Positions 4,941 through 58,828 of a stretch of DNA of 64,000 nucleotides are shown one piece after another. Made by a program: the position numbers and the translations under genes. This DNA comes from Acidobacteriaceae bacterium. GTDB taxonomy: Bacteria; Acidobacteriota; Terriglobia; Terriglobales; Acidobacteriaceae. Each line of letters starts with the position of its first letter. Within the stretch, counting starts at the first letter, position 1. The stretch lies in assembly GCA_035502695.1 (NCBI GenBank), contig DATJUD010000172.1, positions 8,545-72,544 of the forward strand, in the 5' to 3' direction. The notes beneath the pieces were generated by a model. The model ran no database searches. It was not told the origin of the DNA and saw nothing but the letters and a program-made list of their open reading frames with translations.

Positions 4941-6704
4941 TCAGGGCTGGAACGGCATCTGCTCGGGAACCGCTTCTCCATCGGCGCGGGGATCGGTGGC
5001 GCCAAAATTCACTCCACTTTGCAGGTTGTGTTGCACCGCATTGCCGCGGCCCATGTCTTGCGAATAGCGCGGCAGAACTTTAATTATGTGCCCCTGTTGC
5101 CGCAGACCATCGATCACCTGCGGTGCGATGCCGTTCTCCATCAACAGGCTGCAACCGGAGAATGAAGGCATGGTGAAGCGAGCCGCCTCCAGCGCCGCCT
5201 GAATGTTCATGTGGAAGTCCGCGATATTCGACACGAATTGCGCGTGCGCCTGCGCCTGGTTGAACCCGCCCATGATGCCGAAGGCGATGCGTTCGTCACC
5301 CTTTTGCATGAAGGCAGGAATGATGGTGTGTAGCGGGCGTGTGTGCGGACGAAGCGTGTTGGGCTGATTTGGCTTCAGGGTGAAAGCCGATCCGCGGTTT
5401 TGCAGTACGAATCCGGTTCCATCGGCGACCAGTCCGCTGCCGAACGCTCCCGCATTGCTTTGGATCAGCGACACCTCATTCCCGTCTCGATCGACCACTG
5501 CCAGATATGTTGTGTCGCTCGACAAATGCGAGAGTTGCCCAGTCAGGTCAGACGGCAACACGCTACAGTTCGCGCGGTCACTAATCTGTGCGGCTCGGCG
5601 AACAGCCAGTTTTTTTGATATTAGCTGCTGCACCGGGATGTGCGTGGCGCGAGGGTCGCCGACGTAATATCGCATATCTGCATAGGCCAGTTTCTTTGCT
5701 TCAATTTCGACATGCAGCGACTTCTGGCTGTTGTGCCCCCATTCCGCAATCGGAAATTGCTCCATGATGTTCAGCATGGAGAGCGCGGCAATTCCCTGGC
5801 CGTTCGGCGGCATCTCCCAAATGGTCCATCCGCGGTAGGTGGTGCTGACTGGGTCGACCCATTCCGGTTGAAAATCTGTAAGATCGTCCGCCTGTAGAAA
5901 TCCGTGCAGTCGATGAGACAGCTGCAAAATTGCAGCTGCCGTCTGGCCCTTGTAAAAACCATCGCGGCCCTTTTGCCCGATGAGTTGCAGCGTCGCGGCT
6001 AGATCGGGATTGCGAAACAGTTGGCCTGCGGCCGGCGGTTTGCCATCTGGCAGAAAGACGCGCGCAAAGCCTGGGCTGGAGGCGAACTGCGGTCCAAATT
6101 CCTGCCAGTTTTCAGCGTCCGTCTCAGTGACGGCGATCCCTTGTTCCGCCAGCGCGACCGCCGGCGCCAGGTCTTCCGCCATGGAAAGCTTGCCGAATCT
6201 CTGACGGAGTGCGTCCCATCCCGCAACCGCGCCAGGAACGGTCACTGAGAGGATGCCGGTTTCAGGAATCTCCTTCACGATGCCCTTGGCTTTCAAATCC
6301 TCGATGCTCATGGCTTTCGGCGCCCAGCCGCTGGCGTTCAGGCCGTACAGTTTTTTCGTCTTCGCATCATAGACAATCGCGAACAGATCGCCGCCCACCC
6401 CATTCATCATTGGCTCAATCACACCGAGCGCAGCGTTGGCGGCAATTGCTGCATCTACCGCGTTGCCTCCACGCGCCAGAATTGCTGCACCGGCCTGCGA
6501 TGCGACGGCCTGGCTGGTGGCTACAATTCCATACTGGGTCATCACCATGGAGCGCGACTGCTCGCGACTCGGCTGAGCAACGGCGGTCTGCAGGCAGGTG
6601 GTGATGCACATCAACAGACACCCGCACGAAACGATTTTCAGCTTTGAAATCACGTTGACAGGTCCTTCGAAAAAAGATCTCCGATTCACGCAATGAGCCA
6701 TCAT
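4941..6704 (-). CDS. ggt: Gamma-glutamyltransferase
   Basis: Full-length GGT-like translation with the autoprocessing/nucleophile region ..SSDTTYLAVVDRDGN.. and ..GGFNQAQAH... The N-terminus (MMAHCVNRRSFFEG..h-region..AVAQ) looks like an export signal, possibly with a twin-arginine motif. The start is uncertain: 6704, or GTG 6653. Confidence 0.85.
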   Translation of the reverse strand: MMAHCVNRRSFFEGPVNVISKLKIVSCGCLLMCITTCLQTAVAQPSREQSRSMVMTQYGIVATSQAVASQAGAAILARGGNAVDAAIAANAALGVIEPMMNGVGGDLFAIVYDAKTKKLYGLNASGWAPKAMSIEDLKAKGIVKEIPETGILSVTVPGAVAGWDALRQRFGKLSMAEDLAPAVALAEQGIAVTETDAENWQEFGPQFASSPGFARVFLPDGKPPAAGQLFRNPDLAATLQLIGQKGRDGFYKGQTAAAILQLSHRLHGFLQADDLTDFQPEWVDPVSTTYRGWTIWEMPPNGQGIAALSMLNIMEQFPIAEWGHNSQKSLHVEIEAKKLAYADMRYYVGDPRATHIPVQQLISKKLAVRRAAQISDRANCSVLPSDLTGQLSHLSSDTTYLAVVDRDGNEVSLIQSNAGAFGSGLVADGTGFVLQNRGSAFTLKPNQPNTLRPHTRPLHTIIPAFMQKGDERIAFGIMGGFNQAQAHAQFVSNIADFHMNIQAALEAARFTMPSFSGCSLLMENGIAPQVIDGLRQQGHIIKVLPRYSQDMGRGNAVQHNLQSGVNFGATDPRADGEAVPEQMPFQP

Positions 6705-8138: not shown

Positions 8139-11100
8139 ATGCCCCCGACGCTACAGACCGGTGCCGAGCTCGCCATTCCTGCCAGTCTCGATTGGGCACA
8201 CCCCATCACGCAGGAATGGTTTGTCGGGCGATTCGGTACACCCACAGAGCCGCAAATTGAGGGTTGGCCGCATATTCGGGCGGGGCATCCAACGTTGATC
8301 TCCGCGCCTACCGGTTCTGGCAAAACACTGGCCGCGTTTCTAGTTTGCATCAACCAACTGCTGTGTCAGGCGATTTCAGGCACGCTGACTCCGTATACCG
8401 AGGTGGTGTACATCTCGCCGCTGAAGGCGCTTTCGAACGATATTCAAAAAAATCTCGATCAGCCGCTGCGGGAAATTCAACAGCTCGCCCTGGAACGCGG
8501 CTATCTGTACGGCGAAATTCGCACCGCGGTGCGCACCGGTGACACGCTGGCGTCAGAACGTGCGGCCATGCTGAAGAAGCCACCGCACATCCTGGTGACG
8601 ACCCCGGAGTCGCTGTATATCCTGTTGACCTCAAAAAACAGCCGCGAAAATCTTCACCACGTGCGCACCGTGATCGTCGATGAAATTCATGCGGTCGCGG
8701 ATGACAAGCGCGGCTCACACCTGGCGTTGTCGCTGGAGCGGTTGGAAGCGCTGGTGTGCGCTGAAAATCGAGTGGTCCGGGCCGGGCGCATGGCAGTCCC
8801 GATCAAACCGCCGCAGCGGATTGGCTTGTCCGCAACGCAAAATCCAATTGAGTTGGTGGGACAGTTTCTTGTGGGCTCCTCGAAAGATCGCCAGCCAGCG
8901 AAGATCGTTCAGGTGGGTCGGCGGCGCACAATGGACCTAGCGATCGAGGTTCCAACCTGCGAAGAGCTGGGTTTCGTGGCGACGAATGCCATGTGGGATG
9001 AAATATACGATCGCCTGACCGCGCTTGCACAGGAGCATCGTTCGACGCTAGTGTTTGTGAACACGCGCCGCATGGTCGAGCGGCTCTCGCATGCCATCGG
9101 CGAGCGCATCGGTGCGGAAAATGTCGCCGCGCATCACGGCAGCCTTTCGCGCAAGTTGCGCCTGGACGCGGAAACACGGTTGAAAAATGGCGAAATCAAG
9201 TTGCTGGTGGCCACCGCGTCGTTGGAGTTGGGCATTGATATCGGCTCCATCGATCTTGTTTGCCAGGTGGGATCTACACGCGCAGTTGCGGCTGGAATGC
9301 AGAGAATTGGCCGGGCCGGGCACTGGCGAGGTGCGATTCCGAAAGGACGTTTCTTCGCCACTACCCGCGATGACTTGATCGAATGCGCCGCACTGGTGCA
9401 GGCGATGCGTGCCGGCGATCTGGACCGACTCGAAATTCCGCCGCAGCCACTCGACGTGCTGATGCAGCAAATCGTCGCCGCCTGCGCCGCTGAATCGTGG
9501 AACGAGGATGCGCTCTATTCCGTGCTGCGTCGCGCCTATCCGTATCGCGAATTGACGCGGGATGAGTTTGACGAACTGATCCAGGTTCTTCATCACGGTA
9601 TCGAATCCAGTCGCGGTCGGTATGGAGCTTTCGTGATGCGGGATGTGATCCACGGAGAATTGCACGCTCGCCGGGGAGCTAGGCTCGCCGCCGTGTGCAA
9701 TGGCGGTACGATTCCCGATACTGCGCAATACGCTGTCATCATGCAACCGGAAGGACTGCAGATTGCGACGCTCGACGAGCATTTCGCCATTGATTCATCG
9801 GCGGGAGATGTAGTTCTGCTGGGCAACACGAGCTGGAGGATTCAGCGTATCGAAACCGGGCGAGTGTTTGTCGAGGATGCACACGGTCAGCCGCCAAACC
9901 TACCGTTCTGGGCAGGGGAAGCACCGCAGCGCACGGATGTTTTAAGCGACTATGTGGCGCGTTTGCGGGAAGGAATTGCGGCTCGCACTTCGAAAGTGCT
10001 GCCCAGCTGCGTGTCGCCGACCCATGCAGGCGTGGCGGAAACGGCGGCCTGGTTAAAACAGGAGTGCGGCGTTTGCGATGGCGGCGCGAAGCAGATGATC
10101 GGTTACATCGCGGCGGGTCGAGCCGTCCTTGGCACCGTTCCGTCCCTGACAACGATCGTTGCCGAGCGGTTTTTTGATGAAGGCGGAGGCATGCAGCTTA
10201 TCTTGCATGCGCCCTTCGGCGGCCGAGTCAATAAGGCCTGGGGGTTGGCGTTGCGCAAGCGTTTTTGCCGAGGCTTCAATTTCGAATTGCAGGCCGCCGC
10301 GACTGACAACGGCCTTTGCATTTCGCTAGCGGAGCAGCACAGCTTTCCGCTGAGCGATGTGTTTCAATTCCTCACGCGGCAAACGGTGCAAGCACTGCTG
10401 GAGCAGGCAGCATTGGATTCGCCGATCTTCAAGTCGCGGTGGACATGGGCCGCGGGACGAAGTTTGCAACTGTTACGGTTCCAAAAGGGAAAAAAGGTCG
10501 CGCCGCAGATTCTCCGTACTCGTTCCGACGATCTTTTAGCCAGCGTGTTTCCCCAGGTTGCAGCGTGTCTTGAAAATATTCAAGGCGACCGCGAGATTCC
10601 AAATCATCCCCTGGTGCGGGAAGTCATGAAAGACGTCCTCGGAGAGGCGATGGACTTGGCGGGTCTGAAGAGCGTGCTCGAAGGGATCGCCGACGGAACG
10701 ATCCAATGTGTCTCCGTCGATACGACCGCGCCTTCACAGTTCGCACATGAATTGTTGAACGCGAATCCGTATGCATTTCTCGATGATGCACCGTTGGAGG
10801 AGCGCCGCGCGCGCGCGGTTTCGATGCGCCGCACCTTACCCGCCAGCATGCAAGGGGATGCGGGGCAGCTCGACCCTGCTGCGATTGCGGCTGTGCGGTC
10901 GGAGTGCTGGCCGGACCTGCGAGATGAACACGAGATGCACGACCTGTTGTTTCAACTGGTGGCACTACCGGTAGCTATGTTGCAGCGGCAGGAGACAGAG
11001 CCGTGGACATGGTTGTTGCAAAGACTGGAGCGAGCCGGGCGAGCCAGGGTCGTAGAGGGTCGGACAGGCGGTTATTGGGTAGCGACAGAAAACCTAGTGT

Positions 11101-16922: not shown

Positions 16923-16998
16923 TGGAGCACCGGGCGGGAATCGAACCCGCGAATACTGGTTTTGCAGACCAGCGCGTTAGCCACTTCACCACCGGTGC
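16923..16998 (-). tRNA. tRNA-Cys (GCA)
   Basis: The minus strand reads GCACCGG TG..CTGGT CTGCAAA ACCAG..GCGGG TTCGATT CCCGC CCGGTGC T CCA. The 7-bp acceptor, T-arm and anticodon loop with GCA all fold by eye. CCA is encoded. Length 76 nt. Confidence 0.9.
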
Positions 16999-17060: not shown

Positions 17061-17717
17061 CTAGTTCGGCTGAGGTGCGGTACGCAAATACGGCTTGATC
17101 GTTTTGTAGCCAGGAAACAGTTTATCCGCTTCTTCGTTGGAAACAGCGCCGCTCAGGATAATGTCATCACCCTGTTTCCAATTGGCAGGCGTGGAGACCC
17201 TTTGTCTGCTTGTAAGCTGGATGGAGTCGAGAACGCGCAGAATTTCGTCGAAATTGCGTCCGGTCGACATTGGATAGGCCAACGTTAGCTTGATACGTTT
17301 GTCTGGACCGATGACAAAGACCGTGCGGACGGGTGCATTATTGGCTGGTGTGCGACCTTCTGAGGTTTCGCCTGCATCGGCGGGAAGCATGTCGTAGAGC
17401 TTGGACACCTTTAGATCGGTATCTCCAATAATGGGATAGTTCACCGCGTAGCCGCCTACCTCCTGGATGTCAGCGGCCCATTTGCCGTGGCTGCTGACAG
17501 GATCCACGCTCAGACCGATGACTTTAACATCGCGACGGGCGAACTGGCCTTCGAGAGCTGCGACCGTCGCCAGCTCCGTAGTGCAGACGGGCGTGAAATC
17601 TTTCGGGTGGGAGAAAAGAACGGCCCAATTGTCGCCGATCCATTCGTGAAAGTGGATCGGTCCCTGGGTCGTTTCAGCGGTAAAATCAGGCGCGATATCG
17701 TTGATGCGGAGTGACAT
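17061..17717 (-). CDS. 1-Cys peroxiredoxin (Prx6-like, AhpC/TSA family)
   Basis: ..FSHPKDFTPVCTTEL.. peroxidatic Cys motif. The ATG at 17717 is preceded by AAGGAGA with a 6-nt spacer. Confidence 0.9.
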   Translation of the reverse strand: MSLRINDIAPDFTAETTQGPIHFHEWIGDNWAVLFSHPKDFTPVCTTELATVAALEGQFARRDVKVIGLSVDPVSSHGKWAADIQEVGGYAVNYPIIGDTDLKVSKLYDMLPADAGETSEGRTPANNAPVRTVFVIGPDKRIKLTLAYPMSTGRNFDEILRVLDSIQLTSRQRVSTPANWKQGDDIILSGAVSNEEADKLFPGYKTIKPYLRTAPQPN

Positions 17718-17770
17718 GTTCAATCTCCTTCGAAGACGAATTCTCGATGCGTTGTCATTCAGATGACGCC

Positions 17771-18058: not shown

Positions 18059-18625
18059 TCAGCGATCGGCCGCGCGATTTTTCCAGTGACGCTGGTAGTT
18101 GTCCAGCGTGGAAAAGGTCTGGCTCTGCATTCGATCGATATAGATTTTCCCCTGCAAATGGTCGATCTCATGCTGCAGAATGCGTGCATACCACCCCTTC
18201 GCTTCGATCACCCGAGGCTTGCCATGGTGATCGAGACAGGTGACGCGAACCGCGTGTGACCGTGGAACCTCCGCCATAAATCCAGGAAGACTCAGGCAGC
18301 CCTCAAAGAAAGAAACCTGCGAGTCGGAGAGCAACTCAATCTGCGGATTGATCAACACGTGGAAGTCGACGGGCACACGTTCTCTCTCCTTCAATTCTGC
18401 TTCCGTCGTCGCCTTGTGATATTCCGCCCGATCCTCAATCACCGCCAAGTTTAGGGACTGACCAATCTGCGGCGCTGCCAACCCAACTCCCGGCGCATCG
18501 CGCAGGGTTTCTCGCATATGTTCAATCAGGCTTTTGATCTCCGGACCGCGAATCTCTTTGGGCGTAAGTACACGCGCCGTTTGCCGCAATACAGGATGTC
18601 CAACAGCAACAATCTTCAGCAGCAT
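18059..18625 (-). CDS. def: Peptide deformylase
   Basis: All three signature motifs are present: GVGLAAPQIG, EGCLS and HEIDH. Confidence 0.95.
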   Translation of the reverse strand: MLLKIVAVGHPVLRQTARVLTPKEIRGPEIKSLIEHMRETLRDAPGVGLAAPQIGQSLNLAVIEDRAEYHKATTEAELKERERVPVDFHVLINPQIELLSDSQVSFFEGCLSLPGFMAEVPRSHAVRVTCLDHHGKPRVIEAKGWYARILQHEIDHLQGKIYIDRMQSQTFSTLDNYQRHWKNRAADR

Positions 18626-18730
18626 TTTCCCCGCAATTCTTGCGATCTCCAGCCCAGCGCAGCAGCCTGAATCGCGCTCTTCCTATGCTACAATTTAGCA
18701 ACTTCTTTGGTGCTGGAGTTCTGCCGAGTG

Positions 18731-18805
18731 ATGATGATTCAACCTTCTCGAATGTATATGGCCATGCCTGCCCCAGGCGGTCGCAAGCCAGCTTCAGAAG
18801 TCTGA
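18731..18805 (+). CDS. Met-codon-rich 24-codon leader ORF: MMIQPSRMYMAMPAPGGRKPASEV
   Basis: ATG ATG ATT CAA CCT TCT CGA ATG TAT ATG GCC ATG CCT GCC CCA GGC GGT CGC AAG CCA GCT TCA GAA GTC TGA. GGAG lies at 18715-18718 and an in-frame GTG at 18728. It sits directly upstream of the transsulfuration genes. Confidence 0.4.
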   Translation: MMIQPSRMYMAMPAPGGRKPASEV

Positions 18806-18867
18806 GTTATCCCGCTCAATCTTCATTCTGGCAGCCGCCTGGGGAGTTCCCGCCACGGCACGTTTTT
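18771..18867 (+). promoter_or_regulatory. Structured leader RNA: 10-bp long-range helix, alternative weak hairpin, and T5 run
   Basis: CCCCAGGCGG (18771-18780) is perfectly complementary to CCGCCTGGGG (18835-18844). GCCAG (18787-91) pairs with CTGGC (18828-32). An alternative hairpin at 18834-18859 is followed by ACGTTTTT. Confidence 0.4.
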
Positions 18868-18905
18868 CCCAGGAACCATTGCATAGCCCGAATGGAGATT
18901 GCATT

Positions 18906-20108
18906 TTGAGCTCACCAGATTTGGACATTTCTACTGTCGCGATTCATGGCGGACGATCGCTGGATTCCCACGCCAGCTCGATCTTGTTTCCTCTGTATCA
19001 AACCAGTACGTTTGTGCATGATGCGGTCGGAGTCGACAAAGGATTTAGTTACTCGCGAGTGTCGAACCCAACCGTAGACGCGCTTGAAAAAGCACTTGGT
19101 GCGCTGGAAGGAACGCCGCCGGTAGTTTGCTTTCGGACCGGCATGGCCGCAGTCACCACGCTGTTTCTTTCGGTTCTGAAGTCCGGCGATCACGTCGTGT
19201 TGACCGATGTTGTGTACGGCGGCACCATGCGCTTGTTTCGCGAGGTGCTGGATCATCTCGGTATCACCGCGTCGTTCGTGGATACATCCGATCCAGGCAA
19301 TGTTGAAGCGGCGATCACGCCCGCGACTCGCATCGTTTTCCTGGAGACGCCAGGCAATCCTACGCTGAAGCTAAGTGACATTGCGGCGGTTGCCGAGATT
19401 ACCAAGCGGCATTCGATTTTGCTGGCAGTCGACAACACATTCCTGACGCCGATCTTGCAAAACGTCCTGCAACTAGGTGCAGATATTTCTCTGTTATCGA
19501 CCACGAAATATATCGATGGCCATAACGCAACCGTCGGTGGCTCACTGGCCACCCAGGATGAGAAGCTGCTGGAGCGATTTCGTTTGATTCGCAAGACGAT
19601 CGGCACTACGCAAGCCCCATTCGAAGCATGGTTGGCGTTGCAGGGAATGAAGACGTTGCCTGCGCGGTTGAAACTCCATTGCGAAAACGCCCAGACGATC
19701 GCTGAATGGCTGGAGAGCAACCCCGCAGTATCCCGAGTGTATTACCCCGGACTGAAATCATGTCCGCAAAAATCCTTGGCAGAAAAGCAGCAGGGCGCGG
19801 CCGGCGGCATGATCTCTTTCGAGTTGAAAGCCGGATACGACGCCACAATTCGCATGCTGAATCAAGTGCAGCTTTGTTCGCGCGCCGAAAGTTTGGGAGG
19901 ATTGGAAACCCTGATCACGCATCCGTCTTCAACAACCCATGCCGACCTGGATCCGGAATTGCGCCGTAATCTTGGCATCACCGATGGTTTGGTTCGACTC
20001 TCCGTCGGACTGGAAGCTCCACAAGATATCATCCGCGATCTGGAGCAGGCGATGGTAGCTGCTGGATGTAGCGTGCAGGAAAAAGAGGTTGGCCATGAAA
20101 ATCGCTAG
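18906..20108 (+). CDS. Cys/Met-metabolism PLP-dependent enzyme (cystathionine gamma-synthase/gamma-lyase type)
   Basis: ..FPLYQTSTF.., ..YSRVSNPT.., and the PLP-lysine region ..LLSTTKYIDGHNATVGG... The start is uncertain: TTG 18906 follows GGAGA (18894-98), while the longest ORF starts at 18879. Confidence 0.85.
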   Translation: MSSPDLDISTVAIHGGRSLDSHASSILFPLYQTSTFVHDAVGVDKGFSYSRVSNPTVDALEKALGALEGTPPVVCFRTGMAAVTTLFLSVLKSGDHVVLTDVVYGGTMRLFREVLDHLGITASFVDTSDPGNVEAAITPATRIVFLETPGNPTLKLSDIAAVAEITKRHSILLAVDNTFLTPILQNVLQLGADISLLSTTKYIDGHNATVGGSLATQDEKLLERFRLIRKTIGTTQAPFEAWLALQGMKTLPARLKLHCENAQTIAEWLESNPAVSRVYYPGLKSCPQKSLAEKQQGAAGGMISFELKAGYDATIRMLNQVQLCSRAESLGGLETLITHPSSTTHADLDPELRRNLGITDGLVRLSVGLEAPQDIIRDLEQAMVAAGCSVQEKEVGHENR

Positions 20109-21237
20109 CCGCCTGGTAAGTTTTGATCCCGCGCCGGGAGATCGGTTTCGCCCCATTTCCACGCCGATCTATCAGACGGCCACTTTCGAGCAGGAATATT
20201 CCGATCAGTTCGGCGAGTACGATTATTCGCGAAGCGGTAATCCCACTCGTGCGGTAGTCGAAAAGCAAATTGCGTCGCTGGAAAACGGAACTCACGGATA
20301 TTGTTTCTCCAGCGGTATGGCCGCGATCACCACCGCGACGAAATTGTTGCAGAACGGTGATGAGATTCTTGCCGACAACGATTTGTATGGCGGTACCTGC
20401 CGTCTGTTTACCAAGGTGCTGAAGCGCACTGGCATCTCCGCGAAATACGCGGACGCGTGCGATCTTGAAAATTTCGAGCGACAGATCACTCCGAAAACAA
20501 AAATGATCTACGTTGAGTCGCCCACCAATCCTTTGCTTCGTGTGGTCGATCTGCGCAAGCTGGGTGCCACGGCGCATGCTCACGGTGCGCTGTTCTGCGT
20601 GGACAACAGCAGCATGTCGCCCTACCTGCAGAACCCGCTTGACCTGGGAGCGGATGTGGTTCTGCATTCGGGAACAAAGTTTCTCGGTGGTCATCACGAC
20701 GTCACCGCCGGATCTATCGTCGTGAAAGACAAGGTGCTGGCCGAGCAAATTTATTTTGTGCAGAACGCGGAAGGCAATGCGCTGGCGCCATTTGATTGTT
20801 ATCTTTTGCTGCGCGGCATGAAGACGTTGAAGCTGCGGCTCGACTGCCAGCAAAAAAATGCGCAAGCCATTGCGGAATTTCTCAGTCAACATAAAGCAAT
20901 CCAGCGGGTCTGCTACCCAGGGCTGAAAAGCGATGCCGGGTATGAACTGCAGCATTCTCAGGCGCGTGGCGCGGGCGCTGTCCTGAGCTTCACTACAGGT
21001 TCCGTTGCGCTCTCGAAAGCCATTGCGGAAAATGCCAAGCTGTTCCGCATCACCGTCAGCTTCGGCAGCGTCAACTCTTCCATCAGCGTGCCGGGAAACA
21101 TGTCGCACGCCAGCGTTCCGGTGGAGCTGATGTCGCAACGTGACCTGCCGAAAGACCTGGTACGCATTTCCGTTGGGATTGAGGACGAGGAAGACTTGCT
21201 CGCCGATCTGGATCGTGCCATCCAATCCTATCGGTGA
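20095..21237 (+). CDS. Cys/Met-metabolism PLP-dependent enzyme (cystathionine beta-lyase type)
   Basis: ..ISTPIYQTATFEQE.., ..YSRSGNPT.., ..VLHSGTKFLGGHHDVTAG... The ATG at 20095 follows AAGAGG. It overlaps the preceding paralogue by 14 nt, a metI-metC-like arrangement. Confidence 0.85.
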   Translation: MKIASRLVSFDPAPGDRFRPISTPIYQTATFEQEYSDQFGEYDYSRSGNPTRAVVEKQIASLENGTHGYCFSSGMAAITTATKLLQNGDEILADNDLYGGTCRLFTKVLKRTGISAKYADACDLENFERQITPKTKMIYVESPTNPLLRVVDLRKLGATAHAHGALFCVDNSSMSPYLQNPLDLGADVVLHSGTKFLGGHHDVTAGSIVVKDKVLAEQIYFVQNAEGNALAPFDCYLLLRGMKTLKLRLDCQQKNAQAIAEFLSQHKAIQRVCYPGLKSDAGYELQHSQARGAGAVLSFTTGSVALSKAIAENAKLFRITVSFGSVNSSISVPGNMSHASVPVELMSQRDLPKDLVRISVGIEDEEDLLADLDRAIQSYR

Positions 21238-22822: not shown

Positions 22823-23794
22823 ATGAATATTGCCGCAAACGTAACGGATCTGATTGGACGTACTCCACTGGTGGAGTTGCATCATGTGACCGAAGGTTGC
22901 AAGGCGAGAGTGGTGGTGAAGCTGGAGAGCCAGAATCCGCTGAGCAGCGTGAAAGACCGCATTGGCCTGGCCATGATTGAGGCGGCCGAGCGGGAAGGAA
23001 AAATCGCTCCCGGAAAAACCGTGTTGATTGAGCCCACGAGCGGCAATACCGGCATTGCGCTCGCGTTTGTGGCTGCTGTCAAGGGTTACGACATCATCCT
23101 GACGATGCCGGATACGATGAGCCTGGAACGCAGGATTCTATTGCTAGCCTTCGGAGCCAAAATTGTTCTGACCCCCGGCCCGAACGGCGTGAAGGGCGCC
23201 GTCGCCAAGGCAGAAGAGATTTTGAAAGAGACTCCGAATGGCTATATACTGCAACAATTTAACAATCCCGCGAATCCAAAGATTCACTTCGATACCACGG
23301 GGCCGGAGATATGGAACGACACCGACGGGAAAGCCGACATCCTCATTTCCGGCGTCGGCACCGGCGGAACCCTCACCGGGGTCAGCGAATACATCAAAGC
23401 GAAAAAGCCTGGCTTCTGGACGGTCGCGGTCGAGCCTGCCGACAGCCCGGTGCTTTCCGGCGGCAAGCCAGGGCCGCACAAAATCCAGGGAATTGGCGCC
23501 GGATTTGTACCAAAGGTACTGAAGACCGACCTGATTGACGAGATTGTGCAGGTGACCAACGACGAAGCCATTGCCATGGCGCGGCGGTTGCCGAAGGAAG
23601 AAGGCCTGTTGGTTGGCATCTCCTCCGGAGCGGCGGTACATGCAGCACTGCAGGTGGCAAAGAACCCAAAGAACGCGGGAAAGTTGATCGTTGTCATCAT
23701 TCCCAGCGGCGGCGAGCGGTACCTATCGACGGTGCTGTTCGATGAGTTCCGCAAAGAGGCGATGGAGACAAAAACGTCCCCCGTCACGGTATGA
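22823..23794 (+). CDS. cysK: Cysteine synthase A (O-acetylserine sulfhydrylase)
   Basis: PLP-lysine motif ..[11 protein letters not shown].., plus ..[10 protein letters not shown].. and ..[10 protein letters not shown]... Confidence 0.95.
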
Positions 23795-27555: not shown

Positions 27556-28605
27556 ATGATGGGCTTGATCTGGTTCTGGATTGTCGCACTGATGCTGGTG
27601 GCGTATGTGGTGCTTGACGGCTTTGACATTGGAGCGGGCATCGCGCATTTTCTCATCGCACGTTCGCACCAGGACCGCGACACCATTTTGCGTTCCATCG
27701 GCCCAGTGTGGGATGGCAATGAGGTCTGGCTGCTGGCCGGTGGTGGCACCCTGTATTTTGCGTTTCCGTTGCTGTACGCATCATCATTCAGCGGGTTTTA
27801 TCTGCCACTGATGATCGTGTTGTGGCTTCTTATTCTGCGCGGTATCGGCATTGAGTTGCGGTCACACTTCGGCACCGTAGTCTGGCGCGGATTTTTCGAT
27901 GGCTCCTTCGCCATCTCCAGTATTCTGCTCGCCATCTTTCTTGGCGCCGCGCTTGCCAACGTCATTCGCGGAGTGCCGCTGAACGCCGACGGATATTTCT
28001 TTGCTCCCTTGTGGACCAACTGGAAAGTCGGTCCCAATCCCGGTATTCTCGATTGGTATACGGTCATCGGCGGACTGGTTGCGCTGGTTGCTCTTGGCAT
28101 TCATGGGAGTCTGTATCTGGCCATAAAAACCGGCGGAGAACTACAGCAACGGGCCCGCAATCTGGTGCAGCGCGCGTGGATTTTTCTGCTGATTCTCACC
28201 ATACTCAGCCTCACAGCCACCATGCTGGTTCGCCCTGCCGTCTTGCAAAGTTATTTCCACTATCCAATTGCTTTCCTTATCCCCGCGGGCGTGCTTGGCA
28301 GTTTGTTCGGCATCGTTCTTTACTCCCGCAAGAACAGGGATTTCCCGGCTTTCCTAAGCTCCTGCCTCTACCTGACGCTGATGCTGGCTGGAGCCGCTGT
28401 GGGTCTTTGCCCGGTTCTATTGCCGTCCAGCCGCAATGCCGCCCAGGACATCACCATCTCGAAAGCACTCGCCGGCCATCACGGCCTTGCGGTCGGGTTG
28501 GTCTGGTGGGGTTTTGGCATCCTGCTGGCGATTGGATATTTCATCTTTGTCTATCGCATGTTTCGAGGCAAAGTGGCAGAAACTGTGGAGGCCCATGGCG
28601 ACTGA
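27556..28605 (+). CDS. cydB: Cytochrome bd ubiquinol oxidase subunit II
   Basis: ..YVVLDGFDIGAG.. and ..GPVWDGNEVWLL.. motifs. It starts 22 nt after cydA. Confidence 0.95.
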   Translation: MMGLIWFWIVALMLVAYVVLDGFDIGAGIAHFLIARSHQDRDTILRSIGPVWDGNEVWLLAGGGTLYFAFPLLYASSFSGFYLPLMIVLWLLILRGIGIELRSHFGTVVWRGFFDGSFAISSILLAIFLGAALANVIRGVPLNADGYFFAPLWTNWKVGPNPGILDWYTVIGGLVALVALGIHGSLYLAIKTGGELQQRARNLVQRAWIFLLILTILSLTATMLVRPAVLQSYFHYPIAFLIPAGVLGSLFGIVLYSRKNRDFPAFLSSCLYLTLMLAGAAVGLCPVLLPSSRNAAQDITISKALAGHHGLAVGLVWWGFGILLAIGYFIFVYRMFRGKVAETVEAHGD

Positions 28606-56914: not shown

Positions 56915-58828
56915 TCAGCGTGTAGCTGATTGCAACGTGCCAGCGACAATCGTGGCCTGCACTTCCATATGCCCGCGAAACTCGTGCCGCGTCAATCGAT
57001 AGGCAATGTTCATGATGTCCCCCACGACCGGTGGTCGATCCAGCGCAGTATCAATTGAAAACCAGACTGCTTCCAGTATCAGGTTATCGCGCTGCAAGCG
57101 CAGGCGTCCGTGGCGGCCATTGCTCAGCGCACGATAGTTGGCCACCCGAAATGCCCCCGAGTAGAGCGGTGCTTCGAACCCGCGCCCGAACGGCCCCATC
57201 GCCTCCAGCGCTTCAATGCTTTTCAAGTCATGTGCGCCGGCATCCAGTTCGCCATCCGTCCAAAGAGTCGGGCCTGTCGCCACCGCGCCTCCGGTTTGCT
57301 CTGCAACTGCGAATGTGAAAGCCTGCCGAAACCGCTCCATGTCGACCACGCGAATGGTTGCGCCCGCCGCCGCCGAATGGCCGCCAAAGGCCACCAATAA
57401 ATCTGGATAGGAACTTGCAATCTCTTTCAGCGCGCGCTGCACGTCGACCCCAGGCACTGACCGAAACGATCCACTGGCGAGCCCCATCCCGTTGCCAGAG
57501 TCCGATTCCGTTGCCAACGCCGGCGCAGTCGCCCGCGCGCCTTGTCCCTGCGGAGCGAAGATCGCGCAAGGTTTTCCAAATGCTTCCACCACGCGGCTGG
57601 CCGTAATCCCATGGACGCCCGAATGGCCGTCTTCCAGAAACAGAACAATCGCTGGACCTGCAATTTGTGCCGCCTGCGGAAATGCCTTCGCCCGCAATCT
57701 GCGCTCAATCGACTGTCGCTCGGAATTCTCGCGCTTCAACTGGCTCCAGCAGGATGCGGCTTCTTCATCCGTTTTTGCGATAAGAAAACGAAACCCGACC
57801 TCAGCCCAATCCAGCCGTCCAGAGGCTGCAATCGCGGGTACCAGCCGAAACGCAATTGTCTCGGCGTCAATCTCGCCATCTACCTCTGCAGCAAAAATCT
57901 TCCAGCATAGCCGGCATCCCGAACGCACCAGCCGCATGCCACGACGCAGAAACGCGCGATTGATCAGGCTCGCACTTGGAGACAAAGAAACGCAGTCCGC
58001 AATGGTTGCGACGGCAACAAAGTCCAGCAGGCTGGCGAGCGATGGCAACTCCGCGAAGACGCCCTGCTCCAACAGCGCGCTGCGCACCTTCGCCATTACC
58101 AGAAATGCAACCCCTGCACCGCACACATGCTTGTCATACTCGCAATCAAGCCGCGACGGATTCACCACCGCATACGCCGATCGCGGCGGGCCGTCCGGTG
58201 GAATCACGTGATGATCGGTGACGACGACATCAATCCCCGCTGCGGCCAGCGTAGCAATTCGCGGCTCGTCGCTGCTGCCTTTGTCCGCCGAAATGACCAG
58301 TTGTGCGCCGAAGGCTTGTATCCGCGATACCACCCCTTCACCAATTCCATAGCCTTCTGTCAGGCGATGGCTGGTGACAACGCAGATGCGCTCGGGCGCG
58401 ACTCCAAAGGCCTCGACCATCGCCGTCCATAGCACCGCTGCCGACGCAGTCCCGTCCATGTCGTGATCGCAGGCCAATGCAATGCGCTCACCTTGCACAA
58501 TGGCGCGCACAATGCGTTCCACGGCACGATCCATGGAAGGAATCGCGCCAGGGTCGACGATGTCTGAAAGTTTTGCTGCGGTGAGCGATTCCCACTCAAT
58601 GAAGCGATCCATCCGCCGCCCGAGGAAATTCGCTATTGCCGGAGCGGTCCCTGCCTGCTGATAAGCATCACGAACCTCCGCGTTGCAGGGTCGCTCAATC
58701 AGGGATTTTGGAGGCAATTTCCATGGCGTGAATTCTTCTTCGATGGCAACGATTTCCGCGTTCAGTTCGCTGCCCGGAGGCTTCGGATTGCAAGCTTCAA
58801 CGGCCACCGCTGCTGGGTCGTCATTCAC
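56915..58828 (-). CDS. recJ: Single-stranded-DNA-specific exonuclease RecJ
   Basis: DHH-family motifs ..LACDHDMDGTAS.., ..ISADKGS.., ..VVVTDHHV.., and a DHHA1 region ..GGHSAAAG... Confidence 0.9.
   Translation of the reverse strand: MNDDPAAVAVEACNPKPPGSELNAEIVAIEEEFTPWKLPPKSLIERPCNAEVRDAYQQAGTAPAIANFLGRRMDRFIEWESLTAAKLSDIVDPGAIPSMDRAVERIVRAIVQGERIALACDHDMDGTASAAVLWTAMVEAFGVAPERICVVTSHRLTEGYGIGEGVVSRIQAFGAQLVISADKGSSDEPRIATLAAAGIDVVVTDHHVIPPDGPPRSAYAVVNPSRLDCEYDKHVCGAGVAFLVMAKVRSALLEQGVFAELPSLASLLDFVAVATIADCVSLSPSASLINRAFLRRGMRLVRSGCRLCWKIFAAEVDGEIDAETIAFRLVPAIAASGRLDWAEVGFRFLIAKTDEEAASCWSQLKRENSERQSIERRLRAKAFPQAAQIAGPAIVLFLEDGHSGVHGITASRVVEAFGKPCAIFAPQGQGARATAPALATESDSGNGMGLASGSFRSVPGVDVQRALKEIASSYPDLLVAFGGHSAAAGATIRVVDMERFRQAFTFAVAEQTGGAVATGPTLWTDGELDAGAHDLKSIEALEAMGPFGRGFEAPLYSGAFRVANYRALSNGRHGRLRLQRDNLILEAVWFSIDTALDRPPVVGDIMNIAYRLTRHEFRGHMEVQATIVAGTLQSATR

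Follow-up and report, generated by a model that had tools for sequence, protein, structure and literature searches.

The question raised by this locus is whether a short open reading frame (ORF) crowded with methionine codons, situated immediately upstream of two genes for methionine transsulfuration, allows a translating ribosome to decide whether these genes are expressed. The locus lies within a stretch of 64,000 nt (the window; positions 8,545 to 72,544 of the forward strand of contig DATJUD010000172.1, assembly GCA_035502695.1) that originates from an Acidobacteriaceae bacterium close to Terracidiphilus, and all coordinates given below are those of the window. A first-pass annotation had pointed out that the ORF overlaps one arm of a long-range RNA helix, and had proposed it as a candidate methionine attenuator. 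Our comparison of the locus with related leaders suggests that it is probably a ribosome-mediated leader-peptide attenuator specific for methionine, which would sense the charging of Met-tRNA. The ORF, its Met codons and the alternative helices exist and are conserved, and the helices are mutually exclusive.

All of the coordinates assigned to the leader in the first-pass annotation matched the sequence on re-reading, and two of its features could be described more fully. The TACAAT hexamer noted there as −10-like (18689-18694) is present, and is actually part of an extended −10 promoter element, TGcTACAAT (18686-18694), which was read from the sequence and is conserved in relatives. The ORF had been placed at 18731-18805, with a preceding GTG in brackets; the stop and the frame were right, but the most likely start is this GTG at 18728, which lies 9 nt downstream of a Shine-Dalgarno (SD) sequence, GGAG (18715-18718). 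The leader ORF (18728-18805) therefore consists of 25 codons and a TGA stop (18803-18805), reads (V/M)MMIQPSRMYMAMPAPGGRKPASEV*, and has two ATG codons (18731 and 18734) directly after the GTG. It contains a conserved sensor block, CGA ATG TAT ATG GCC ATG (18749-18766), with three Met codons in five (18752-18766). The 3′ half of the ORF forms strand a (18771-18800), composed of a1 (CCCCAGGCGG, 18771-18780), a2 (GCCAG, 18787-18791) and a3 (GAAG, 18797-18800). Beyond the stop codon lies strand b, the putative switch strand (18817-18844), composed of an anti-SD segment (CAATCTTCATTC, 18817-18828), b2 (CTGGC, 18828-18832) and b1 (CCGCCTGGGG, 18835-18844). As reported previously, a1 is fully complementary to b1 over 10 bp, and the helix is extended by the complementarity of a2 to b2. 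The SD strand of the first enzyme gene (GCCCGAATGGAGATTG, 18886-18901, with GGAG at 18894-18897) forms an inverted repeat with 18817-18832. All of these elements are on the plus strand.

Inside the window, two of the features that had drawn attention to the leader are not exceptional. The density of ATG codons had been considered very unlikely by chance; this claim fails within the window, where at least three ATG per five in-frame codons occur seven times. The other sites are at 57006, 5764 and 16225 (plus strand) and at 27787, 49713 and 2381 (minus strand), and four of these clusters sit in ORFs of 44-61 codons. Perfect 10-bp inverted repeats with arms within 100 nt of each other number 10 in the window, against approx. 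7 in shuffled sequences. The ATG cluster and the 10-bp helix are thus each at chance level here, and the case therefore rests on comparison with other genomes, where about 60 independent loci show the ORF again, together with its Met codons and helices. As regards folding energy, the terminator hairpin suggested in the first-pass annotation (−11.8 kcal/mol, z about 0) is no better than shuffled sequence, and the whole antiterminator hairpin (18767-18848) has a predicted energy of −41.2 kcal/mol (z = −5.3), a value reached by none of 200 shuffles.

In order to collect related leaders, orthologs of the first enzyme were taken from one genome per species and the regions upstream of them were inspected. 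Just upstream of the ortholog, 15 Acidobacteriaceae genomes carry a small ORF with the core S-R-M-x-M-A-M-x-x-P-G-G-x-R-P-a-s-e-v-stop. Metagenome contigs were then scanned with a DNA pattern derived from this core only (ATGNNNATGGCNATGNNNNNNCCNGGNGG), in which the downstream gene played no part, and about 45 further unique leaders were obtained. The remaining pattern matches were discarded as out-of-frame or other matches within long ORFs. Among them were two groups, ..FMAMAMLRPGG.. (L096, L102, L108, L135, L150 and L152; loci are given by L numbers) and ..KMDMAMPEPGG.. (L113, L119, L125, L129 and L185), which lie antisense or out of frame inside long conserved protein genes (host ORFs of approx. 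800 and 300 aa) and are unrelated to the leader. Taking genome and metagenome leaders together, 57 family members have enough downstream DNA to be judged, and in 56 of them an ortholog of the same enzyme (60-96% amino-acid identity) is found 25-157 nt downstream. The sole exception, L086, is an artefact of ORF picking, as L173 and L174, of which it is almost a duplicate, do have the gene downstream. The element is therefore tied specifically to this operon.

The operon comprises, as the first-pass annotation had recognized, two pyridoxal phosphate-dependent enzymes of the Cys/Met family directly downstream of the leader, one MetB-like and the other MetC. Gene 1 (18906-20108, plus strand, TTG start) matches Pfam Cys_Met_Meta_PP (E = 1.4e-135), and its best NCBIfam match is a cystathionine gamma-synthase (NF005871; 412.8 bits, below the cut-off of 513), so we refer to its product as cystathionine gamma-synthase-like. 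Gene 2 (20089-21237, plus strand, from the ORF list) overlaps gene 1 by 20 nt and scores 501.7 bits with TIGR01329, above the cut-off of 487.5, which identifies it as a cystathionine beta-lyase gene. By these assignments, above the NCBIfam cut-off for gene 2 and below it for gene 1, the downstream genes make the amino acid that the leader is proposed to sense.

Several lines of evidence suggest that the leader ORF is translated. In 54 non-identical leaders, the leader frame is free of stop codons between alignment columns 13 and 78 (from the start to codon 22), where the two other frames contain 77 and 6. In all 54, a potential start codon (ATG, GTG or TTG) is found in frame 4-12 codons ahead of the first sensor Met, usually at −8 and/or −6, and in 50 of them the stop is at the usual position (codon 26), with the other four ending in frame a few codons earlier or later. 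Purine runs of the GGAG/AGGA type, judged by eye from the alignments rather than counted, precede the start by approx. 8-10 nt in most relatives. The conservation of the ATG codons, on which the first-pass annotation had made its proposal depend, was found in the alignment: sensor codons 9, 11 and 13 are ATG in 53, 54 and 54 of the 54 leaders. Codon 10, which lies between two of these Mets, varies freely (its three positions each have an entropy of 1.4-1.7 bits), and the constraint must therefore act on the AUG triplets themselves. The leader also appears to be part of a transcript, since the extended −10 element is conserved upstream of the start: TGnTAnnnT occurs in 38 of 57 unique related upstream regions (4.3 expected), in 35 of them 31-45 nt upstream of the leader start, and is often accompanied by a TTGAC −35 hexamer. 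A strict two-hexamer promoter scan returned nothing at the leader.

These data bear on the possibility that the RNA is a riboswitch for S-adenosylmethionine (SAM), S-adenosylhomocysteine (SAH), methionine or a related ligand, built from the a1:b1 and anti-SD:SD helices, with the ORF being incidental. The non-coding parts are indeed very highly conserved (e.g. CAGCCGYCUGGGG), the competition of a mutually exclusive helix for the SD-sequestering strand is typical expression-platform logic, and in Firmicutes the same operon is under riboswitch or T-box control. However, conservation in the leader has a periodicity of three bases, and the codon that separates invariant AUGs is free to vary; this pattern indicates coding constraint and would not be produced by a ligand-binding RNA motif. 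In-frame stops are absent, the start, SD and stop are conserved, and the other lineages described below replace the "aptamer" sequence but keep the Met-codon run. The known SAM, SAH and T-box elements, already considered in the first-pass annotation, gave no relevant match in Rfam: nothing relevant was found at the gathering score in the whole window and 20 related loci, nor at E ≤ 10 in the leader region (18550-18990), where the sole match is a snoRNA artefact on UGAUGAUGA. Against NCBIfam and Pfam, five leader peptides likewise gave no meaningful match at E ≤ 10. A riboswitch with an incidental ORF is, on this evidence, very improbable.

The RNA helices are conserved together with the ORF. 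The consensus structure predicted for the family by RNAalifold contains a1:b1, i.e. the 10-bp helix of the first-pass annotation. In the 54 sequences, 97.8% of the cells of this helix are paired, which is above the shuffle and slide controls, and the variable positions are all wobble-compatible (G-C to G-U, C-G to U-G and A-U to G-U). The covariation that had been anticipated for this helix was thus found in part: pairing is kept, with changes limited to wobble pairs within the Acidobacteriaceae and with compensated arms in three other lineages. For the extension a2:b2 (GCCAG/CUGGC), 83.7% of cells are paired, and compensatory changes on both sides occur at three pairs; the a2a3:b3b2 duplex has a mean energy of −14.8 kcal/mol with its own partner and −11.9 kcal/mol with the partners from other sequences. 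We also identified a candidate 1:2 hairpin, in which GCC-A-UG (Ala12-Met13) pairs with CAGGC (18774-18778). It is paired in 99.3% of cells, with wobble-compatible variation only. The synonymous changes GCC>GCU, CCA>CCG and GGC>GGU (codons 12, 16 and 17) all keep the 1:2 pairing, and the two that lie within a1 also keep the 2:3 pairing, a1:b1. Another local hairpin, between codons 13-14 and 17-18 (columns 53-58 with 64-69), was dropped in favor of GCC-A-UG/CAGGC, as only 68% of its cells are paired and its middle pairs are mostly unpaired.

The 1:2 pairing provides some support for a different view, in which the ORF is part of a switch that is not specific for methionine, but reports general translation or coupling (as in systems of the pyrL and ermC type) or tunes translation, the Met codons being retained as the pairing partner AUGGCCAUG. 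This segment is indeed one of the strands of the predicted 1:2 hairpin, and it varies only in ways that wobble pairing tolerates. A ribosome slowed for any reason in the first half of the ORF would also shift the balance between the alternative structures. Against this, the codon between the Mets is free, so that it is the AUG triplets themselves that are constrained, the leader is tied exclusively to a methionine biosynthesis operon, and three further lineages keep Met runs of different sequence and arrangement, including one with eight Met codons (L030). We consider a switch without specificity for methionine unlikely.

The three lineages in question carry orthologs with 50-56% identity, preceded by leaders whose Met runs are arranged differently: ..K-R(CGA)-M-M-M-P-N-L-G-A.. 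in Cysteiniphilum (Gammaproteobacteria), ..K-R(CGA)-M-M-M-L-N-L-G-A.. in a second gammaproteobacterial metagenome-assembled genome (MAG), and ..T-M-M-P-V-M-M-S-M-S-M-A-M-P-W-P-G.., with eight Met codons, in the unclassified MAG of L030. Their a1:b1 arms are compensated (CCUAGGC/GCCUAGG, CCUGGGU/ACCCAGG and GGCCGGGU/ACCCGGCC). In all three the helix starts 4-5 nt past the last Met codon, as helix a1 does in the Acidobacteriaceae, which makes four lineages with this spacing, and its 3′ arm can also form a local hairpin; a canonical terminator, ..GGUGGUUUUUU, closes the L030 leader. In the covariance-model alignment, L030 and Cysteiniphilum fall into the register set by this spacing, albeit with weak scores. 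The pairing is kept although the lineages do not share the residues after the Met run, which argues that P-G-G represents an RNA constraint and that the Met codons are the common functional element. The leader appears to have moved between phyla together with the enzyme gene.

The same comparison is relevant to the idea of nascent-peptide arrest, in which S-R-M-x-M-A-M-x-x-P-G-G within the exit tunnel would sense free methionine or SAM and bring the ribosome to a halt. A ribosome halted at P-G-G would sit over strand a, and the operon would consequently be OFF when either compound is abundant. There are precedents for such sensors in TnaC (Trp), SpeFL (ornithine) and the plant CGS1 MTO1 region (SAM). 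In the case of Arabidopsis CGS1, SAM-dependent arrest of the MTO1 nascent peptide stalls the ribosome in cis and autoregulates cystathionine gamma-synthase; this system is eukaryotic, its arrest sequence lies within a coding exon, and the outcome is mRNA decay. The parallel with our leader, control of cystathionine gamma-synthase by stalling in cis, bears on the arrest explanation only. Four observations are in its favor: (i) peptide residues other than Met are invariant or nearly so (R8, A12, P16, G17 and G18), and Ser7 is maintained through all four synonymous TCN codons, (ii) within the Acidobacteriaceae, the Met codons are constant in both number and position, (iii) a stall over a1 would give the correct regulatory sign, and (iv) R-M is common to both gammaproteobacterial lineages. 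However, the conservation of Ala12 (GCC in 51 leaders and GCT in 3) and of P-G-G is explained at the RNA level by the a1:b1 and 1:2 helices. The residues following the Met run differ between lineages (PNLGA, LNLGA and PWPGHG), while the nucleotides remain complementary to a co-varying b1. Moreover, the lineages share a Met run in varied arrangement (MxMAM, MMM and MM..MM.M.MAM), as is typical of leaders with hungry codons. Arrest by the nascent peptide therefore seems rather unlikely to us, and the shortage of charged Met-tRNA remains the preferred signal.

The element controlled by strand b differs between members of the family. Strand b1 has an alternative partner further downstream, arm C, with which it makes the 3:4 hairpin. 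In this b1:C pairing 86% of cells are paired, and a C-G to U-A compensation is seen in eight sequences of one clade. The first-pass annotation described the terminator stem as poor, which is true of the window, but the homologous hairpin of the relatives (GCCGCCUGGG..CCnnGGCGGC) is strong (−17 to −24 kcal/mol), and in 42 of the 54 relatives a T-rich tract, with 5 or more T in an 8-nt window and the consensus nnAGUUGUUUCU, comes after it.

In the window, L001 and L002, arm C has diverged, and b1 pairs best with UUUUUCCCAGG (18863-18873). The resulting hairpin of the window lineage, CCUGGGGAG with UUUUUCCCAGG (18838-18873, −15.9 kcal/mol), is not above shuffled sequences. It overlaps the weaker hairpin of the first-pass annotation, which is present at 18834-18859 and is followed by the T5 run at 18863-18867, as described there. 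In the larger hairpin this run lies inside the stem, no U-tail follows, and the output in the window lineage is therefore probably translational. This agrees with the translational control that the first-pass annotation had offered as an alternative to termination, the anti-SD:SD helix of the window being intact. In the clade of L011 (L011, L091, L120, L127, L130, L178 and L188), a second small hairpin, GGCGAnnnnnUCGCC, replaces the T-rich tract approx. 20-40 nt after b1, and the anti-SD:SD pairing is in two parts (CCUCCC..AGAGCG with CGCUCU..GGGAGG); these features suggest that this clade is under purely translational control. For the window lineage and the L011 clade, we predict that control is probably translational, possibly aided by Rho.

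The anti-SD:SD helix itself, which had passed unremarked in the first-pass annotation, appears from the comparative data to be at least as well supported as the terminator. Segments 18817-18832 and 18886-18901 form a 16-nt inverted repeat, 88% complementary, that includes the GGAG of the enzyme gene. Across 50 homologues, duplexes formed with the own partner average −18.2 kcal/mol, as against −12.7 kcal/mol for those formed with the partners of other sequences (an advantage of 5.5 kcal/mol) and −8.3 kcal/mol for those with shuffled partners. The own partner is better in 46 of the 50, from which it follows that the anti-SD and SD segments co-vary between clades. The best reading of the family's sequences is that the output would combine transcription termination with sequestration of the SD.

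The predicted ON and OFF structures are incompatible. In the ON hairpin (18767-18848, whose energy is given above) strand b is paired with strand a, and in the OFF structure (18814-18912; −37.8 kcal/mol, z −3.0) strand b is paired with arm C and the SD region; the two folds share 28 nt and therefore cannot coexist. The ON hairpin takes up 9 of the 16 anti-SD nucleotides. We folded 51 leaders under constraint, with the position of the ribosome imposed as a mask. When the ribosome was placed at the stop codon, b1 paired with C in 49 of the 51. With no ribosome, it did so in 41, strand a being held by the 5′ half of the ORF. When the RNA was masked to just past the Met block, a1:b1 was the minimum free energy (MFE) fold in 27 leaders, among them that of the window. 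As b1 is transcribed before C, kinetics should favor a1:b1 further whenever a1 is free. Pairing of the SD in the MFE fold was tried as a read-out of the ON and OFF states, proved uninformative, since the SD is paired in nearly every state, and was replaced by the comparison of duplex energies.

The spacing between the Met block and the helix fits this scheme. With the last Met codon in the A site, helix a1 would begin at about +11/+12 from the P site, and helicase mapping from the Noller laboratory reportedly places the end of the ribosomal mRNA channel at about +11/+12. With the helix starting at the edge of the channel, a ribosome waiting for Met-tRNA would leave strand a free, and one or two further translocations would begin to unwind it. 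Taken together, the pair counts and the modeled folds support the ribosome-controlled choice between the long-range helix and a downstream hairpin that the first-pass annotation had proposed.

According to the mechanism that we propose, transcription would start just past the extended −10 element (18686-18694), and a ribosome would translate the 25-codon leader (18728-18805). Strand b (18817-18844) could then pair either with strand a (18771-18800), or with the downstream arm of the 3:4 hairpin and the SD region (18886-18901). When charged Met-tRNA(Met) is plentiful, the ribosome would cross strand a and reach the stop codon, leaving strand b free to form both the 3:4 hairpin and the anti-SD:SD helix, and the operon would be OFF. 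In most relatives the hairpin and its T-rich tail would probably also terminate transcription, and in the window lineage the output would probably be SD sequestration only. When Met-tRNA(Met) is scarce, the ribosome would wait at one of the three Met codons (18752-18766) and cover the upstream partner of strand a (GCCAUG and the 5′ half of the ORF). With strand a left free, the a:b hairpin would form, block the 3:4 hairpin and tie up the anti-SD, and the operon would be ON. The two genes correspond to those of the metI-metC operon of Firmicutes, where control is exerted by an S-box or a T-box; induction on methionine shortage is therefore the expected sign, in agreement with the modeled structural logic of the switch. 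Both the charging of Met-tRNA as the signal and the direction of switching are what we infer from the arrangement of the codons and strands.

A number of points weigh against this mechanism. The dependence on methionine is, as stated, inferred only. The stalled-ribosome ON state is the MFE fold in just 27 of the 51 leaders, and by MFE hardly any state leaves the SD unpaired, its partners in the ON fold being different ones. The a1:b1 core contains no double compensatory change within the Acidobacteriaceae, and the homology of the lineages in which it is compensated rests on weak covariance-model scores (15.4 bits for L030 and 8.3 bits for Cysteiniphilum). The T-rich tract does not adjoin the stem directly (offset of 3-4 nt), the L011 clade lacks it and in the window lineage it is buried within a stem, and a terminator scan found no terminator at the window leader. 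Methionine starvation should also impair the formylmethionine (fMet)-dependent initiation on the leader, and the ribosome-free state is predicted to be OFF. Finally, the conservation of CGA, Ser7 and Thr6 is not required by a pure hungry-codon model.

This last point deserves attention. Arg8 is encoded by CGA in 53 of the 54 leaders and in both gammaproteobacterial lineages, and CGA accounts for 14.7% of the Arg codons of the window. Ser7 and Thr6 are conserved with no well-supported reason at the RNA level; S7 and R8 lie outside any supported helix, and a possible pairing of CGA with UCG (the Ser23 codon) shows no covariation. It is conceivable, though we give it a low probability, that the ribosome acts here as a tuned methionine sensor, either because CGA in the P site (I:A wobble) slows decoding of the next AUG, or because the nascent S-R-M-x-M-A-M arrests on free methionine or SAM. 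Slowed decoding of the AUG would sharpen the sensitivity to elongator Met-tRNA, and could help to separate this signal from fMet-dependent initiation. If correct, either mechanism would add a new kind of methionine sensing to those known in bacteria.

Leader-peptide attenuation has been described for Trp, His, Phe, Thr, Leu, Ile/Val and, more recently, Cys, and the known modes of methionine control are SAM riboswitches, T-boxes and proteins such as MetJ. By analogy, the mechanism proposed here would be a trp/his/leu/phe-type attenuator combined with SD sequestration of the ermC type. The kind of mechanism is already known; the specificity for methionine, the phylum and the dual output on one switch strand would be new. 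The statement of the first-pass annotation that Met-codon control is not a standard described mechanism is in line with our finding no Met leader-peptide attenuator in the literature searched, which largely excluded subscription journals, so that an earlier mention is possible. No attenuator was found for methionine operons in a comparative study of Actinobacteria (PMC1262725).

The leader resembles the classical attenuators (trpL, hisL, pheL, thrL, leuL and ilvL of Proteobacteria, and those of the trp and ilvB/leu operons of Actinobacteria; PMC1262725) in its short, putatively translated ORF with a cluster of end-product codons, in the alternative 1:2, 2:3 and 3:4 pairings, in the predicted release of region 2 by a stalled ribosome, in the biosynthetic operon downstream and, in most family members, in the GC-rich 3:4 hairpin with a T-rich tail. 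It differs from them in its putative sensor codon, AUG, in the host phylum, Acidobacteriota, in the anti-SD that its switch strand also carries, giving a putative dual output, in the lack of an intrinsic terminator in the window lineage and the L011 clade, and in having no sequence similarity to any Rfam leader family. With the translational attenuators of ermC, cat and cmlA it shares the remodeling of hairpins by a stalled leader ribosome, which frees a sequestered SD; however, stalling in these systems is caused by a drug and a specific nascent peptide, and here most likely by a shortage of charged tRNA, and most members of our family also carry a terminator-like hairpin. The mycobacterial poly-cysteine leader ORFs upstream of cys operons (PMC1262725; bioRxiv 10.1101/834739) likewise combine a sulfur amino-acid pathway with an ORF rich in end-product codons, but they are specific for Cys, often leaderless, and lack detectable conserved terminator/antiterminator hairpins, whereas the alternative helices are the most conserved part of the leader described here. 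The S-box (SAM-I) of Bacillus subtilis metIC and the met T-box of Staphylococcus aureus metICFE-mdh (PMC3771891, PMC7913692) occupy the same position, in the 5′ leader of the same gene pair, and the T-box also reads the charging of tRNA(Met), as proposed here. In contrast to our leader, which has no S-box, SAM-class or T-box match, these RNAs bind SAM or uncharged tRNA directly, without translation.

A Met-codon attenuator is conceptually awkward, because initiation on the leader needs the same amino acid, and a conserved natural example would show how cells separate the supply of elongator Met-tRNA from initiation. It would also be the first RNA-level regulation of sulfur amino-acid metabolism in the Acidobacteriaceae, an abundant and poorly studied group of soil bacteria, and would offer a compact part of approx. 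200 nt in which termination and SD sequestration are placed on one switch strand.

The distribution of the leader is uneven. When the window and L001-L080 were searched with a covariance model (R1) built from 48 leaders, no second copy of the element was detected. The search did reveal decayed copies at the homologous position in L008 (2843-2961, 18.2 bits) and L021 (2837-2948, 15.9 bits), in which most Met codons are gone and the helices are damaged together with them. Terriglobus, Bryocella and some other Acidobacteriaceae loci have no leader upstream of the ortholog, and in Terriglobus and Bryocella no Rfam element was found in its place. No convincing Met leader was seen at the orthologs of Neisseriales and Burkholderiales (L027-L029) or at the more distant orthologs L031-L080. 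Locus L006 (DATLJC010000069.1, an 8.7-kb contig) was binned as "Candidatus Saccharimonadales" and carries an Acidobacteriaceae-type leader in front of an enzyme 70% identical to that of the window; this contig is probably mis-binned.

The genes surrounding the leader in the window share a theme of sulfur and N-terminal methionine. A peptide deformylase gene (18059-18625, minus strand) is divergent to the leader promoter, a gene for a 1-Cys peroxiredoxin is located at 17061-17723 (minus strand), and cysK (cysteine synthase A, above the NCBIfam cut-off) at 22823-23794 (plus strand). A tRNA-Cys(GCA) gene is syntenic with the leader-metB/metC operon; the copy of the window (16923-16998, minus strand) is 1.7 kb away on the opposite strand. 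In six metagenome loci (L092, L099, L107, L140, L148 and L168), a tRNA-Cys gene lies on the same strand as the leader, approx. 30 nt upstream of its start codon (in L107 this tRNA-Cys(GCA) gene is at 6291-6366). These six loci have no extended −10 element, the tRNA-Cys gene standing in the place of the promoter, and the leader is probably co-transcribed with tRNA-Cys there.

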